From an uncultured bacterium (GTDB lineage: Bacteria; Patescibacteriota; Minisyncoccia; Phycocordibacterales; GWA1-40-21): DNA of 27,228 bases. Below are positions 1,817 to 19,143 of the stretch, piece by piece (positions within the stretch are counted from its first letter, which is position 1; each line of letters starts with the position of its first letter). A program made the translations under genes and the position numbers. The notes under the pieces are model-generated. The model did not search any database. It was given only the letters and a program-made list of their open reading frames with translations, and was not told the DNA's origin. The stretch is taken from positions 1 through 27,228 of the forward strand of contig CAIPUJ010000062.1 in assembly GCA_903868205.1 (NCBI GenBank). The letters run 5' to 3'.

Positions 1817-1983
1817 TTTTAACTTCAACCGGCCGGAGGCTGACGAGACGAGGTTGAAATTTGGGTAGGGACCCAAATGAAAAACCTTGAACGTTTTGTA
1901 CTAAAATGTGAAAGGTGTACTGCTCCTGTAAGGAGGGCCCAGGCAACTTTTCAGCAGAAAAGTATGCGTGGGTTGAAGTAAAA
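1817..1983. other. Multi-hairpin structured intergenic element (candidate ncRNA or repeat)
   Basis: Closing stem TTTTAACTTCAACC (1817-1830) / GGTTGAAGTAAAA (1971-1983). Internal hairpins at 1859-1878, 1884-1916, 1923-1935 and 1946-1963. Confidence 0.45.
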
Positions 1984-1986
1984 GGA

Positions 1987-2122
1987 TAAAGGCTCACTCG
2001 GCTTCTCTTTTTAAAAACACGATAAAAATACCGCCGTCGCGGTATTTTTTCTATACTCACAAAATTTCTTGCTAGAAATTTCGCTCCGTAATATTTTTAA
2101 AAAGTGAAACCTCGCTCGCTTA
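1987..2122 (+). repeat. Dispersed ~135-bp palindromic repeat, copy 1
   Basis: 131/136 identical to 27048-27183; diverged inverted copy at ~19014-19143. Outer CTTTTTAAAAA/TTTTTAAAAAG stem plus two internal hairpins. Confidence 0.95.
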
Positions 2123-2136
2123 TGGGCAGAGGGGAA

Positions 2137-7773: not shown

Positions 7774-9183
7774 ATGATTAAGAAAATTACTAAAAAGATA
7801 ATTAAAAAAACAGTATCTACAAAAGCAGAGCCTAGGGTTTCTAAGTCGGAAGCTCTTACTTATGATGTGATTGTCGTCGGAGGTGGCCCTGCTGGGCTCA
7901 TGGCTGCCGGTGTGGCCGCAAAAGACGGCGCAAAGGTGCTTGTTATAGAAAAGAATGAAGAGCTCGGCAAGAAGCTCCTTATATCAGGCGGAGGTAGATG
8001 CAATATTACAAACGCTAATCCAAATCACAGGGATTTTGTTTCCAAATATGGAAAGAAAGGGAATTTTCTTTTTACACCTTTTTCTATTTTTAGTGTAAAC
8101 GATTCAATCAAATTTTTTAATGATCTTGGACTAAAAACAAAAGTTGAGCCAGGTTTTAGAGTATTTCCAGAAAGTAATAATTCAATAGACGTATTAGAAA
8201 TTCTTGTAAGATATGCAAAAAATAATGGAGTTGAGTTTAAACTTTCTACTGAAGTGGATCATTTTGAAACGGACGGAGGCCTCATAAAGTCTGTTGTCTT
8301 AAAAAAAGGTTCACCCGAGAAAATTTTACCTGATGGAAAATCTGAGATTTTCCGTGCATTGGACAAAAAGTCCAATGCGTCAGGTAAAACTTTAACGGGC
8401 GAGGAAATAAAAGCAAAAAGTTTTGTTCTGGCTACTGGAGGCAAATCTCATCCAGAGACTGGTTCTACAGGAGATGGTTTCAAATGGCTTAAGGAAATAG
8501 GACACAAGGTAGCGGATTCTAATCCATCACTTGTACCAATAAAAATAAAAGAACTTTGGATAGGGGACTTTGCCGGGATTACATTGGAGAATGTAGGTAT
8601 TTCTGTATGGCAAGATTCAAAAAAGATTATAAATAAAAAAGGGAGAATACTTTTTACTCATGAAGGGGTTTCTGGTCCAACAATATTGAATATGAGTAAA
8701 GACATCGGAGATTTACTTCAGTATGGAGAGACAAAAATCGCAGTAGACTTTTTCCCTGGCATTGGATTAGACGAATTACATGAAAAGTTTAAAAAGCTTT
8801 TTGACTTACATAGTAATAAAAAGATAAAGAATCTCGTTGTGAATGAAGTCCCCGCAAAAATATTTTTAAAGATTTTAGGTTTACTTAAAATAGACGGAGA
8901 GATTTGGATGAATTCAATTATGAGAGAGGAGAGAGCGGCTATTATAGATAAATTAAAGAAATTTGAATTAAGGGTGAGCGGCCTTATGGGATATGACAAA
9001 GCAATCATCTCAAGTGGGGGATTAGATTTAGAAGAAGTAGATTTTAGAACAATGAAATCTAAACTTTTCGATAATCTTTTCTTTGTCGGAGATCTCTTAG
9101 ACTTTGATAGACCTTCTGGTGGCTTTAGTTTGCAATTATGTTGGACGACAGGTTACATAGCAGGGAAAAACTCAGCTAAATAA
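7774..9183 (+). CDS. HI0933/YhiN (BaiN-like) NAD(P)/FAD-dependent oxidoreductase with a ~30-aa insertion
   Basis: GGGPAG, KKLLISGGGRCNITN, LATGGKSHP..GSTGDG, LFTHEGVSGP, GGFSLQLCWTTG motifs. Confidence 0.93.
   Translation: MIKKITKKIIKKTVSTKAEPRVSKSEALTYDVIVVGGGPAGLMAAGVAAKDGAKVLVIEKNEELGKKLLISGGGRCNITNANPNHRDFVSKYGKKGNFLFTPFSIFSVNDSIKFFNDLGLKTKVEPGFRVFPESNNSIDVLEILVRYAKNNGVEFKLSTEVDHFETDGGLIKSVVLKKGSPEKILPDGKSEIFRALDKKSNASGKTLTGEEIKAKSFVLATGGKSHPETGSTGDGFKWLKEIGHKVADSNPSLVPIKIKELWIGDFAGITLENVGISVWQDSKKIINKKGRILFTHEGVSGPTILNMSKDIGDLLQYGETKIAVDFFPGIGLDELHEKFKKLFDLHSNKKIKNLVVNEVPAKIFLKILGLLKIDGEIWMNSIMREERAAIIDKLKKFELRVSGLMGYDKAIISSGGLDLEEVDFRTMKSKLFDNLFFVGDLLDFDRPSGGFSLQLCWTTGYIAGKNSAK
8311..8400. 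repeat. Palindromic element inserted in frame in the HI0933-family gene
   Basis: Three-way junction: TTTTACCTGA/TCAGGTAAAA (8324-8333/8380-8389), GGAAAATC-tga-GATTTTCC, GCATTGGAC-aaaaa-GTCCAATGC, with CCCG/CGGG termini. Encodes SPEKILPDGKSEIFRALDKKSNASGKTLTG. Confidence 0.8.
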
Positions 9184-15115: not shown

Positions 15116-15153
15116 CTTTGCCTCTTTTTCTATTTCACTAAATTTGCTACAAT

Positions 15154-15426
15154 TCACCCATTAAAGTTTTTGCCAACGTTTTTGAAATGATGGTTGCTTA
15201 GATGGTCATACTTTTTAATGATATTACAGCTTAAAAGCAATTTCATATAAAAACAAAAACATTTCATTGGCAAAAATTTTGTTAGGGTGAACCCGTTAAA
15301 GTTTTTGCCAATGTTTATTAAAAATGTTATGTATATATTGCATAATATTGCCGTATTACTTATGTTATAATGAGTTTGCGTTGATTAACGATAAACAATT
15401 TTTGTTGGCAAAAATTTTGTTCGGGT
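15154..15426. repeat. Two abutting inverted-repeat-bounded units (137 and 136 bp) upstream of ileS
   Basis: Unit 1: TCACCCATTAAAGTTTTTGCCAA...TTGGCAAAAATTTTGTTAGGGTGA (15154-15290). Unit 2: ACCCGTTAAAGTTTTTGCCAA...TTGGCAAAAATTTTGTTCGGGT (15291-15426). The interiors (90 and 93 bp) differ. Confidence 0.85.
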
Positions 15427-15445
15427 AAACTAAATAAAAAAATAT

Positions 15446-18400
15446 ATGGATACACCCAAAAAGAGTAAAAATGCTGAAAGAGAAGAAGAATTATTAAAAT
15501 TTTGGCAGGAGAATAAAATTTTTGAAAAGACTTTAACGAAAGATTCACCAAAAGGTGAGTATGTCTTTTATGACGGACCTCCTTTTGCTACTGGTTTACC
15601 GCACTTCGGGCATATTCTTGCTGGAACAATGAAAGATTTTGTGGGCAGATATAAAACAATGAGAGGATACCATGTTCCAAGAAGATGGGGTTGGGATTGT
15701 CACGGTCTTCCTGTAGAAAATATTGTTCAAGATGAGATTGGTTTGAAATCAAAAAAAGATATTGAAGATTTTGGTTTAGAAAAATTCAATGATACCGCAA
15801 GAAGCAAAGTTTTTACATATGTAGATGATTGGAAAAAGATTGTTCCAAGAATGGGCCGTTTTGTAGATATGGAGAATGACTACAAGACGCTAAATCCGAG
15901 CTATACAGAAAGTGTTTGGTGGGCCTTTAAAAAATTACAGGATAAAGGATTGATTTACGAAGGTTTTAAATCAATGCATCTTTGTCCACAGTGTGGAACG
16001 ACTCTTTCAAACTTTGAGGTAGGGCAGGGATATAAAGATATTACTGATATTTCAGTAACAGCTAAATTTGAATTGATAGATGAGCCAGGAACATTTTTCC
16101 TTGCATGGACAACAACCCCTTGGACTCTTCCTGGTAACGTGGCTTTAGCTATAAATTCTGAAATTGATTATGTTAAAATTGTTGAAGTAGCGAAAACTAC
16201 TATTGGTGAATCTAATGGCAGATATGATTTACCAAGTGGAGAAAAATATATTTTAGCCAAGGCAATTTTTGCAAAAGAATCTCAGAAACTTACACCAGAT
16301 GGATCATCAGAAGTATACATCTATAACAATAAAAATTATAAAATATTAGAAACTTTTATTGGAGAAAAAATAGTTGGTAAATCATACAAACCACTTTTTG
16401 ATTATTACAATAACGACAAACTTAAAAACAGAGAAAATGGTTTTAAGGTATATTCTGCAAGTTTTGTAACTACTGAAGATGGTACTGGTATTGTGCATAT
16501 TGCACCGGCTTTTGGAGAAGACGATATGAATCTTGGAAAAGAAAAGAAACTTCCTTTTATCCAACATGTAAATATGGCTGGAGAATTTACTCCAGAAGTT
16601 TTTGACTTTGCAGGACAAAAAGTAAAACCAAAAGACGATCACCAGAAAGCAGATATTGATGTTATTAAATTTTTAGCAGGTAAAAATTCTCTATATGCAA
16701 AAGAAAAATTTACTCACTCATATCCTCATTGTTGGAGATGTGATACACCACTCCTAAACTACGCGACAAGCTCTTGGTTTGTTGAGGTTACAAAAATAAA
16801 AAATGATCTTATAGAAGCAAATAATAAAATCGGATGGGTACCGAAAGAAATAGGAGAGGGAAGATTTGGTAAGTGGCTTGAGAATGTTCGTGACTGGTCT
16901 ATTTCTCGTTCTAGATTCTGGGGCGCTCCTTTACCTGTGTGGAGATGTGAAAAATGTAAGGGTAATCATTTTGTGGGTTCAATAGAAGATATTAAAAAAC
17001 AAACAACAAGAAATAATAAATTCTTGGTTGTTCGTCATGGCGAAGCAGAAAGTAATGTTCTAGGTATTTTAAGTTCAAATCCAAAAGTAAATCATTCTCT
17101 TACACAAAATGGTAAAGATCAGGCTGTGGAAGCAGGGGACAAACTCAAAGATACAAAAGTAGATATTATTTATTGTTCTCCTTTTGTAAGAACAAAAGAA
17201 ACAGCAGAGCTTATTGCAAAACAGATTGGATATCCTGTGGAAAAAATAGTTTTTGATGAAAGACTTCATGAAATATATGTCGGTGTTCTTGATGGTAAAC
17301 CAGATGCAGAATATCAAGCATTCTTTGAATCAAGAGGTGCGAAGTTTTGGAAGACTCCAGAAGGAGGGGAGAACTATACTACTGTAAAAAACAGAATGAC
17401 TGATTTTCTTTATGATATAAATTCTAAAAATGAAGGTAAGAATATTTTAATTGTTTCCCACAATACACCTATCTGGCTTATGTTTGGTGGTGCTTCTGGT
17501 ATGACACCAGAGCAACTTATGGCGATGAGAGAAGCCGGTAAACCTTTTATTTATAACGCAGAAGTAAAAGAGCTTGAATTTGCAGCTATTCCTCACAATA
17601 GAAATTACGAATTAGATTTACACAGACCATTTATCGATGAGCTTATTTTGCCGTGTAAATGTGGTGGAGAAATGAAGCGCATCCCAGAAGTTTTTGATTG
17701 TTGGTTTGAATCAGGCTCAATGCCGTTTGCACAGTCTCATTATCCATTTGAGAATTTAGATAAATTTAATCCAGAAAAAGGTATTGGTTTCCCAGCAGAC
17801 TTTATCGCCGAAGGAGTAGATCAAACTAGAGGATGGTTTTATTCTATGCTTGTCCTTTCTGTTGCTTTGTTTGGTGAATCTTCTTATAAAAATGTTGTTG
17901 TAAATGGAATTGTTCTCGCTGAAGATGGGCAGAAGATGGCGAAGAGATTAAAAAATTATACTCCACCTATGGAGTTGGCAGATAAATTTAGCGCAGATGC
18001 AATGAGATATTACTTATTGTCTTCAAGTGTTATGAAAGCTGAAGATTTGAAATTCTCAGATGAAGGAGTAGATGAAGTCGTAAAAAAAGTAATTATGAGG
18101 CTTCAAAATGTTCATTCTTTCTACGAAATGTACGGAGGAAAAGATTTGAAAGAAAAAGTTGGAAATTCTCTCAATGTTTTGGATAAGTGGATTCTTGCAC
18201 GATTGAAAGAAACAGCAACACAGATGACAAAGTCTACAGAAAAATATGAGCTTGATAGAGCAACCTGGCCTATAGCTGACTTTATTGAAGATCTTTCCAC
18301 TTGGTTTCTAAGAAGATCAAGAGACAGATTCAAATCAGAAAATATTTCTGATAGAAATTTTGCTATAAATACAACAAAAGAAATTATTCTAAACGTTTCT

Positions 18401-19003
18401 AAACTTATCGCTCCATCAATGCCTTTTTTGGCTGAAGATTTGTATAAGAAAATTGGAGGAGAAAAAGAAAGCGTACATTTAGAAGCTTGGCCAGATGAAT
18501 TTGTAGGGGAACTTACAAAAGAAGAAGTCGAGACAATAGAAAATATGAAGGACGTCAGAAATGCTGTTTCTCTCGGGTTAGAATCTAGAGCAAAATCTGG
18601 AATTAAAGTCAGACAACCTTTAGCTAAAATACAAATTCAAAGTGAAAAGCTAAAAGGCAAACAGGAATACTTAGATTTGATTAAAGATGAAGTAAATGTG
18701 AAAGAAGCGATCACAGACAAAAGTATTTCTGAATTGGTAGTGCTTGATACAAATATTACTCCAGACTTAAAAGATGAAGGGGATATAAGAGATTTAATTA
18801 GAAGTATTCAAGAAGAAAGAAAGAATAAAAAACTAAGTCCAAATGATTTGATTGGACTTACTGTAGATACTAATGATATTGGCAAGAGTCTTGTAGAAAA
18901 GTTTAAAGATGAAATAGTTAGGGTTACAAATGTTAAGGATATTTCTTTCGGCCCAAACATTCAAGAAAACTCACCCGGTATTTTTATCAAGTTCTTAGTT
19001 TAG
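15446..19003 (+). CDS. ileS: Isoleucine--tRNA ligase, type 2, with an inserted histidine-phosphatase domain
   Basis: DGPPFATGLPHFGH, GWDCHGLP, WTTTPWTLPGN, EGVDQTRGWF, KMAKR; type-2-like C-terminus; RHG motif at residue 530. Confidence 0.96.
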   Translation: MDTPKKSKNAEREEELLKFWQENKIFEKTLTKDSPKGEYVFYDGPPFATGLPHFGHILAGTMKDFVGRYKTMRGYHVPRRWGWDCHGLPVENIVQDEIGLKSKKDIEDFGLEKFNDTARSKVFTYVDDWKKIVPRMGRFVDMENDYKTLNPSYTESVWWAFKKLQDKGLIYEGFKSMHLCPQCGTTLSNFEVGQGYKDITDISVTAKFELIDEPGTFFLAWTTTPWTLPGNVALAINSEIDYVKIVEVAKTTIGESNGRYDLPSGEKYILAKAIFAKESQKLTPDGSSEVYIYNNKNYKILETFIGEKIVGKSYKPLFDYYNNDKLKNRENGFKVYSASFVTTEDGTGIVHIAPAFGEDDMNLGKEKKLPFIQHVNMAGEFTPEVFDFAGQKVKPKDDHQKADIDVIKFLAGKNSLYAKEKFTHSYPHCWRCDTPLLNYATSSWFVEVTKIKNDLIEANNKIGWVPKEIGEGRFGKWLENVRDWSISRSRFWGAPLPVWRCEKCKGNHFVGSIEDIKKQTTRNNKFLVVRHGEAESNVLGILSSNPKVNHSLTQNGKDQAVEAGDKLKDTKVDIIYCSPFVRTKETAELIAKQIGYPVEKIVFDERLHEIYVGVLDGKPDAEYQAFFESRGAKFWKTPEGGENYTTVKNRMTDFLYDINSKNEGKNILIVSHNTPIWLMFGGASGMTPEQLMAMREAGKPFIYNAEVKELEFAAIPHNRNYELDLHRPFIDELILPCKCGGEMKRIPEVFDCWFESGSMPFAQSHYPFENLDKFNPEKGIGFPADFIAEGVDQTRGWFYSMLVLSVALFGESSYKNVVVNGIVLAEDGQKMAKRLKNYTPPMELADKFSADAMRYYLLSSSVMKAEDLKFSDEGVDEVVKKVIMRLQNVHSFYEMYGGKDLKEKVGNSLNVLDKWILARLKETATQMTKSTEKYELDRATWPIADFIEDLSTWFLRRSRDRFKSENISDRNFAINTTKEIILNVSKLIAPSMPFLAEDLYKKIGGEKESVHLEAWPDEFVGELTKEEVETIENMKDVRNAVSLGLESRAKSGIKVRQPLAKIQIQSEKLKGKQEYLDLIKDEVNVKEAITDKSISELVVLDTNITPDLKDEGDIRDLIRSIQEERKNKKLSPNDLIGLTVDTNDIGKSLVEKFKDEIVRVTNVKDISFGPNIQENSPGIFIKFLV

Positions 19004-19013
19004 TATCTTAACC

Positions 19014-19143
19014 TCTAAGCGAGTTTTTACTTTTTAAAAATATTACGGAGCAAAATTTCTAGCAAGAAATTTTGCGAGTATAGAAGAAATTTTTTGACGA
19101 AAAAATTTCTATCGTGTTTTTAAAAAGTAAAACTGAGCGACTT
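19014..19143 (-). repeat. Dispersed ~135-bp palindromic repeat, diverged inverted copy
   Basis: Reverse complement shares TTTTTAAAAACACGAT, CTATACTC, AAATTTCTTGCTAGAAATTT and GCTCCGTAATATTTTTAAAAAGT with 1987-2122. Confidence 0.9.

Follow-up and report, generated by a model that had tools for sequence, protein, structure and literature searches.

The flavoprotein gene at positions 7774 to 9183 of a patescibacterial contig carries what is very probably a recent in-frame insertion of a mobile element: the short form of a palindromic repeat has entered a turn of an otherwise intact protein, where it would be read as a loop of 30 residues that the enzyme probably tolerates, and the repeat family to which it belongs may be moved by a nuclease. 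The contig is CAIPUJ010000062.1 of GenBank assembly GCA_903868205.1, from an uncultured bacterium, and its whole length of 27,228 nt is referred to here as the window. The genome under study, G000, comprises 743 kb in 117 contigs with a G+C content of 34%, and the names that its homologues bear in databases assign it to Patescibacteria/Paceibacteria; G009 denotes its sister genome, other G-numbers species-representative genomes of the same taxonomic family, and C-numbers contigs. A first-pass annotation had proposed that a palindromic element was inserted in frame in this gene, in the manner of the Rickettsia palindromic elements (RPEs), and this proposal is now supported by empty sites in relatives, dispersed in-frame copies in other genes and a retained fold. 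The copy in the flavoprotein gene thus appears to have been inserted recently, as one member of an element family that is confined to this lineage and moves fast.

The insert in the flavoprotein gene

The gene, on the forward strand, encodes an intact HI0933-like FAD flavoprotein of 469 aa. Precomputed annotations of its homologues give the Pfam domains PF03486 and PF22780, and an AlphaFold2 model of the protein (mean pLDDT 78), which Foldseek matches to the PDB entries 2i0z (E = 1e-39), 4cnj, 2gqf and 3v76, keeps the HI0933 fold; architecture and fold are both HI0933-like. The protein reads ...IKSVVLKKG, then SPEKILPDGKSEIFRALDKKSNASGKTLTG, then EEIKAKSFVLATGG, with the extra residues 181-210 encoded by positions 8311-8400. 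As the first-pass annotation had stated, these 90 nt keep the frame and contain no stop codon, and only a short turn is normally found at this point: 114 of the 120 best homologues, drawn from a metagenome set, have just G-E. The closest homologues are 433-436 aa long, with identities of up to 85% by BLASTP and 91-92% in gap-free alignment. A surface loop had been expected on a predicted structure; the model shows a low-confidence loop (residues 180-208, pLDDT below 50, one short helix) lying between strands 170-176 and 211-221. In another loop, about 15 residues before the insert, many HI0933 orthologues have different in-frame repeat peptides (GGLSLRRSKATGKGETSG; ...LDSRLRGND...; ...DCFASLAKT...), which are encoded by GC-rich palindromic repeats of other families; that loop is an insertion hot spot, and this region of the protein is hence tolerant of insertions.

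Insertion-free alleles, the first thing to be sought among close relatives, were found in two. In G009, the sister of G000 on a gene tree among the species-representative genomes of the family (99% support), the flavoprotein is 91% identical in amino acid and 87% in nucleotide sequence, and the site reads AAA AAT/AGA GAA GAG, exactly without the 90 nt, where the stroke marks the insertion point. The site is also empty (AAT GGA/GAA GAG) on contig L021, which has the same gene order as the window; in the window, the flavoprotein gene is flanked by a MazE/PemK pair on one side and a DUF5671 gene on the other. Mismatch-free cover of the region comes from lake-water metagenome contigs in four runs of one study, and two of these contigs span the whole insert, which is therefore not an assembly artefact. 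A filled/empty polymorphism within the source population was considered and rejected: the lake contigs show only the filled allele for the G000 organism, the empty alleles belonging to more distant relatives with many mismatches.

The minimum-energy DNA fold of the 90 nt has a free energy of -29.5 kcal/mol, against -7.6 +/- 2.1 for 200 shuffled sequences (z = -10.35), none of which folded as well. It is a three-way junction, as the first-pass annotation had recognised, although the arms of 10, 9 and 10 bp with no unpaired junction bases given there were approximately rather than exactly right. The outer helix, P1, consists of 4, 3 and 11 bp, including one T.G pair (8314-8317/8396-8399, 8320-8322/8391-8393 and 8324-8334/8379-8389); its 5' arm (8314-8334) is the left terminal inverted repeat common to all members of the family, the long and GIY-YIG forms described below included, and its 3' arm (8379-8399) the right one, with covariation supporting both arms (columns 18/77 and 19/76). 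Within it stand hairpin P2, of 8 bp (8335-8342/8346-8353, GGAAAATC-TGA-GATTTTCC), likewise supported by covariation, and hairpin P3, of 9 bp (8356-8364/8370-8378, GCATTGGAC-AAAAA-GTCCAATGC), which varies greatly in sequence among copies while its pairing stays constant; two bases, GT at 8354-8355, are unpaired at the junction. Folded as RNA, the insert reaches -42.8 (z = -8.3) and its complementary strand -47.7, and the idea that the mRNA-sense strand is the specially structured one was rejected, since both fold equally well.

This fold is conserved among copies. Across 20 short copies from several genomes (94 alignment columns), standard pairs occupied 95.5% of pair cells, as against 23-50% in controls with the partners slid by one to three columns; eleven pairs had changes on both sides, and none of 500 shuffles reached the observed covariation score. 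Compensatory double changes affect seven of the nine P3 pairs. At the flavoprotein site itself, the P3 arms GCATTGGAC/GTCCAATGC are replaced in three other genomes by GCATTAGAC/GTCTAATGC or GTATTGGAC/GTCCAATAC, and P1 changes from ACCTGA/TCAGGT to GCCTGA/TCAGGC. Such stem changes alter the encoded residues, from A to V and from A to T (ALD/SNA to VLD/SNT), so conservation appears to act on the nucleotide fold and not on the peptide. The first-pass annotation would have been contradicted by orthologues that broadly retained the 30 residues while synonymous changes destroyed the palindrome; instead, few orthologues bear the insert, and in these the palindrome is maintained by compensatory double changes, with altered amino acids as the result. 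Between the genomes compared at the flavoprotein site, the element is 87-97% identical in nucleotide sequence, compared with 40-54% at the third codon positions just downstream (ungapped, with indels in two sequences depressing the lower figure). No Rfam family matched in a scan of the window. A CTGATG(A/G) motif is suggestive of a hammerhead or other ribozyme, but this candidate was discarded: the GAAA core is missing, the CTGA is base-paired with TCAG, and no match to an Rfam family passes threshold.

A repeat family with common ends

The ends of the insert recur throughout G000 as 5'-TYACCCGAGAAAATTTT...AAAACTTTAACGGGTRA-3', with the consensus TYACCC...GGGTRA, around three interchangeable centres: two small hairpins (giving elements of about 90 nt), an AT-rich, promoter-bearing sequence (about 140 nt) or a gene for an 89 aa GIY-YIG protein (299 nt). 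The short forms, with the three-helix junction, number five in G000 (about 90-96 nt): one lies in the flavoprotein gene, another replaces the last codons and stop of pyrG, and three are intergenic, one of them in the rpoB-rpoC spacer. There are about 25 long forms of about 140 nt, with conserved ends and a variable AT-rich centre that often contains an extended -10 box; in 18 out of 23, the start of an open reading frame (ORF) of 60 aa or more lies past one end at a distance of 0-17 nt. For the 140 nt form, a nested hairpin was rejected: the inner motifs follow the order A-B...A'-B', so that both pairings cannot nest, and only the outer helix is consistent. In their small size (below 300 bp), lack of a transposase gene, dispersal (about 30 copies in the 743 kb of G000, about 73 short copies across the taxonomic family) and terminal inverted repeats (18-24 nt, forming the outer helix), the elements resemble MITEs (transposable elements of the miniature inverted-repeat class), as they do in showing filled and empty sites between G000 and its close relative G009.

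With a covariance model of the short form, which gives the flavoprotein copy 107 bits (model R1), 24 of the 53 genomes in the same taxonomic family, representing five of its six genera, proved positive; elsewhere in the order, where about 148 genomes from more than 100 families were covered, a single genome was positive. G009 and four other genomes of the taxonomic family yielded no genuine copy with the cut-off relaxed to E <= 1, the sole match being one of 16.8 bits (E = 0.66) in G007. Absent from the sister genome and from 29 of the 53 genomes, the repeat family is therefore dispensable and subject to quick gain or loss. All nine element sites of G000 that were compared are empty in G009: the flavoprotein gene, the two elements of a tandem pair upstream of ileS, the 3' end of pyrG, a site upstream of recR, and two each on C96 and C115.

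These filled and empty pairs place the insertion point between T and A (or G), and at none of the nine is there a target-site duplication. The 299 nt unit on C115 is perfectly clean, cat/att having become cat-TTACCC...GGGTGA-att, whilst several other filled alleles lack 4-10 target bases. In the in-frame copies, the RA that concludes the right end also supplies positions one and two of the host codon that follows, such that a 92 nt element adds exactly 90 nt; in the flavoprotein gene the element spans 8311-8402 from inverted repeat to inverted repeat, its final GA being the first two bases of a host Glu codon. Models invoking target duplications of 1-4 nt, or TA, TNA or TTAA targets, were tried, and none fits all junctions. 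Given the lack of duplication, the mechanism is probably not classical transposition, and the pattern fits the repair of breaks with short overlaps better than staggered cuts by a transposase.

A search for other in-frame copies had been suggested, and in sister genomes there are at least 14, at eight other sites in housekeeping genes, although among the proteins of G000 itself only the C-terminal replacement in PyrG was found. The 73 distinct short copies of the family genomes include 15 that run through long ORFs, all in one orientation and frame, with the mostly hydrophilic translated consensus [SL]PEKIL[PT]DGKSKIFRALDKKSNAS[GV]KTL[TA]G. They lie in genes for an RluD-like pseudouridine synthase (G023), Fpg (G004), RNase HI (RnhA; G003 and G011), a BipA-type GTPase (G003 and G020), LeuS (G003), IleS (G015) and MurC (G003), and at a second site in an HI0933 gene (G006), and at exactly each of these points the G000 orthologue lacks about 30 residues; the remainder are at the same HI0933 site as the window copy. 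Several unrelated conserved genes are thus entered in frame, as is the case for RPEs. Frame +0 is open in every one of the 15 intragenic copies, 14 of which measure 92 nt from end to end; of the 58 copies that are not intragenic, which range from 64 to 97 nt, only 11 are open. These counts reveal selection against broken genes, and the restriction of copies inside genes to frame-keeping, stop-free ones argues for translation of the inserts and against their removal.

The element occurs at three sites of HI0933 proteins: it follows residue 180 in seven of them and residue 282 in two, and in three it lies close to the N-terminus. On a tree of the 120 metagenome homologues the bearers are scattered, requiring at least ten changes for all sites together, of which at least six are forced by well-supported branches; in a separate tree of 29 genome representatives, site 180 alone needs three changes, at least two of them forced. 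The four site-180 copies for which DNA sequence was obtained all end in GGGC, where the family consensus has GGGT; two are from near-identical genomes, leaving three distinct alleles. This pattern may have arisen by repeated entry into a favoured site, by homing from one orthologue to another, or by old descent followed by many precise losses, and either of the first two needs fewer events than the last. In the G005 copy the two inner hairpins are inverted relative to the outer arms, which recombination between the inverted arms would explain.

Within the window, the long form is represented by the tandem pair upstream of ileS, both members of which lie on the reverse strand: the first, of 137 nt, at 15154-15290 and the second, of 140 nt, at 15289-15428. 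G009 has only AAGTTT in place of the whole 276 nt pair. The native extended -10 box of ileS (TGCTACAAT, forward strand, 15145-15153) is the same in G009, where the ATG follows 22 nt later; the pair entered directly after its last T, and the second copy brings an extended -10 box of its own (TGTTATAAT, 15363-15371) directed towards ileS, which starts with the ATG at 15446. Another long form (C96:20772-20912) sits exactly between a -10 box and an ATG, again bringing its own -10 box, at a point where G009 has TATAAT and then, 6 nt later, the ATG, a leaderless-type arrangement; such insertions thus turn leaderless genes into leadered ones. The members of the tandem pair at 15154-15428 abut one another, an arrangement also seen at C51:1958-2235 in G000 and, resembling a cassette array, at locus L191 (G003:C63:3100-4150), where five family units, one of the GIY-YIG type, have 2 nt junctions in common.

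Three further features were noted in passing. A GC-rich palindrome of another repeat family (GTCATTCCCGCGCAGGCGGGAATCC..., C63:3671-3785 in G000) adjoins the long form upstream of recR and is absent from G009. An unrelated repeat of about 125-148 nt is found three times in the window (1978-2125, 19018-19140 and 27039-27186), twice in direct and once in inverted orientation, the copies being 83-93% alike. The ileS product itself (15446-19003, 1185 aa) has a histidine-phosphatase domain (PF00300, residues 527-694) inside its catalytic domain.

The GIY-YIG unit and the origin of the insert

Fourteen units of 299-300 nt, with the ends TTACCCGAGAAAATTTTTACTAAT...ATTAGTAAAAACTTTAACGGGTKA, were found in nine genomes: one in G000 (C115:2590-2888) and 13 in G003, G004, G005, G011, G013, G017, G023 and G027. 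Each surrounds an 89 aa ORF, which matches the Pfam GIY-YIG domain PF01541 over residues 2-71 (57.5 bits, and 53.4 bits for a second); the 90 nt insert itself encodes no such domain. In the G000 unit the ORF occupies C115:2593-2859 on the minus strand. The C-terminus of the nuclease (...ISKNFLG, an 18 aa tail) and its stop codon are written in the left inverted repeat, and in 12 of the 14 units a host ATG follows 0-2 nt after the right end (as in GGGTAA/ATG). Nucleases of this type (at least 71% identity) are encoded by ten of the 24 element-positive genomes and by none of the 29 element-negative ones, although, since related genomes are not independent, this is a lead rather than a test. Having the same ends and occurring only in element-positive genomes, the nuclease unit is the likely, though unproven, mobiliser of the short and long forms, and the 140 nt and 90 nt forms would be miniature derivatives of it.

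Other candidates for this role fared less well. A GIY-YIG gene in the window lies in a 346 nt block (220-565) that is absent from G009 and has inverted repeats (TTACCCC.../...GGGGTGA) only loosely like the family ends; as a parent, this cassette (241-536) was rejected, because the inserted block reaches past the cassette's inverted repeats and family ends are missing from the closest homologues of the cassette, making it at most a distant relative. Its nuclease frame runs stop-free into secE, forming a single GIY-YIG-SecE reading frame of 157 aa (ORF 278-751). Y1 transposases of the type associated with REP sequences (RAYTs) were also set aside: Y1 genes are present in 37 of the 53 family genomes, but outside genus g1 their occurrence does not follow that of the element, and there are no family ends near either of the two in G000. 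One of these, on C31, simply lacks family ends nearby; the other, a RAYT-like gene for 231 aa (C99:2665-3357), has hairpins of a different repeat (GTCAAGGTGGAGCCTTGAC) on both sides, in what looks like the classic REP/RAYT manner. A 1.5 kb candidate autonomous element on C100 was dismissed with its contig, whose 5034 nt form a perfect inverted self-duplication with the same ORFs on both strands, most likely a fold-back assembly artefact. No transposase bounded by family ends was found in G000.

We therefore favour a reading in which the short and long forms would be non-autonomous derivatives moved in trans by the family GIY-YIG nuclease, by way of DNA breaks and copying repair rather than transposase chemistry. 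The conserved fold would then reflect recognition by the moving machinery and not a function of the peptide; copies inside genes would survive only where they keep the frame and are read in the stop-free sense frame, being read through as 30 residues, and the host enzyme would tolerate the loop. A number of points weigh against it. The intragenic copies are all in one orientation although a reverse frame is also open in 12 of 14, a bias for which the model does not account; site 180 is filled in distant orthologues, and the four copies there with DNA sequence (three alleles) all end in GGGC, which could mean old common descent with precise losses; and both the translation of the loop and the continued function of the enzyme are predicted from sequence. 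The link to the nuclease is circumstantial, consisting of common ends and co-occurrence among non-independent genomes; 14 element-positive genomes lack this nuclease type, the 89 aa protein amounts to the catalytic domain by itself, no DNA-binding domain being recognisable in it, and we know of no DNA transposon that uses GIY-YIG chemistry. A stronger version, to which we give rather less than even credence, is that the 299 nt unit is self-mobilising, moving itself and its gene-less 140 nt and 90 nt derivatives by break-and-copy without target duplication, either exactly between leader and ATG or in frame into protein loops. If this is true, the unit would lie far below every known autonomous insertion sequence in size, and would represent a GIY-YIG-driven class of mobile DNA that rewrites promoters and proteins in ultra-small bacteria.

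In the most serious competing view, though an unlikely one, the element would be a classical MITE whose movement depends on a transposase, of the DDE or another type, with its gene at a different place, and the GIY-YIG gene would be just a further passenger in a cassette bounded by inverted repeats. The clear terminal inverted repeats, the small size, the many dispersed copies with filled and empty sites, and the interchangeability of hairpins, promoter and gene as centres all agree with it, as does the absence of the nuclease type from the 14 element-positive genomes; against it stand the lack of target duplication in nine comparisons, the loss of target bases at several sites, and the failure to find in G000 any transposase with family ends, the Y1 genes on C99 and C31 included. 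A unit with the same ends does exist in the 299 nt form, but it encodes a GIY-YIG nuclease and no known transposase. We consider it improbable that the fold is, beyond mere selfish DNA, a functional nucleic-acid element selected in place, for example as a structure in the mRNA by which translation is slowed or regulated, or as a site bound by a protein or nuclease. Compensatory changes even among same-site copies of orthologous genes, conservation far above that of neighbouring synonymous sites, and the single orientation of all intragenic copies would suit such a role, but a family missing from G009 and 29 of the 53 genomes is dispensable, both strands fold equally well with no Rfam match, and the likeness between copies is as great across different genes as within one site, in keeping with a recent spread from structured master copies.

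An ancestral, lineage-specific loop, kept for the function of the enzyme and lost in most relatives, is largely refuted and carries very little weight with us, even though seven HI0933 proteins of different clades have the loop at the exact site and the four DNA copies there (three alleles) end alike in GGGC. The loop is missing from 114 of the 120 homologues and from the sister genome, and the trees demand at least two to three events at site 180 and at least six over all HI0933 sites; moreover, the same sequence is present in eight unrelated genes and in intergenic DNA, with nucleotide pairing conserved rather than amino acids. Least credible of all is an intervening sequence that, like an intron or intein, is taken out of the RNA or protein, or else an artefact of assembly. 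The structure is strong, and introns are known from rRNA genes of Patescibacteria (PMC11270868); yet the intragenic copies preserve the frame and are stop-free in 15 of 15 cases against 11 of 58 elsewhere, a filter needed only if they are translated, no Rfam intron or ribozyme matched, and an intein would have to be far larger than 30 aa. The presence of the same sequence on independent metagenome contigs speaks against an artefact. Hence insertion of a mobile element, probably moved by the nuclease, remains the reading that we prefer.

Comparison with known systems

Protein-coding palindromes have long been regarded as a Rickettsia curiosity. Here the same behaviour appears in free-living ultra-small bacteria with genomes of about 0.7 Mb, where essential genes have been entered (those for two aminoacyl-tRNA synthetases, MurC, BipA and RNase H) and longer relatives of the element replace native promoters directly before start codons. 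Because the family is absent from the sister genome, the gain of protein loops and promoters can be dated and compared site by site, and because a nuclease gene has the same ends, the long-open question of how such elements move becomes directly testable. In the literature that was searched, no report was found of such elements in Patescibacteria or of GIY-YIG mini-elements bounded by inverted repeats.

According to later accounts that summarise Ogata et al. 2000 (PMC2229807, PMC10969869), RPEs are found between genes and, stop-free, inside many conserved protein genes. So far as these accounts describe them, RPEs and the present elements are alike in being small palindromes with one stop-free frame, read through as a mostly hydrophilic peptide, whose fold is kept by compensatory substitutions; they differ in that the host here is a patescibacterium and the element a 90 nt three-helix junction, where RPEs form a long stem-loop of 105-150 nt. 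The present family also appears to have been recently active, being absent from the sister genome. Given the host phylum, it is classed as working like an RPE and not as a member of that group, from which it is taken to be unrelated, the likeness being one of behaviour and not of compared sequences. To our knowledge, RPEs have no autonomous partner, in contrast to the nuclease-coding member with the same ends described here.

The division into long and short forms recalls the 155 and 107 bp Correia (NEMIS) elements of Neisseria, which have inverted repeats of about 24 bp, a longer class that is intergenic and carries promoter elements, and a shorter one with open frames fused inside genes (PMC2229807). 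Correia elements duplicate a TA target, which fits movement by a transposase (PMC2229807), unlike the present family, with no duplication and often small target deletions. In GIY-YIG homing endonuclease genes, both free-standing and intron-borne, there is a parallel for a selfish nuclease gene, patchy occupancy of the same site in orthologues, an element more conserved than its host and insertion without target duplication, as expected from break repair; however, homing enzymes such as I-TevI and I-BmoI have a C-terminal DNA-binding domain and one cognate site (PMC3664794), whereas the 89 aa nuclease is a bare domain, its residues beyond 2-71 being a tail written in the inverted repeat, with no separate DNA-binding domain, and it belongs to a family with inverted-repeat bounds, many sites and gene-less miniatures. 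The REP/BIME sequences and their RAYTs offer a likeness in structured extragenic repeats within a small genome that has RAYT-like genes, but the Y1 gene on C99 is flanked by a different hairpin and Y1 genes do not track the family. What sets the present elements apart from RPEs and other intragenic MITEs is therefore the host phylum, a three-helix architecture whose P3 varies freely yet keeps its pairing, insertion without target duplication and the nuclease partner; what they add is the breadth of in-frame cases in essential genes, an element-free sister genome and a candidate nuclease partner.

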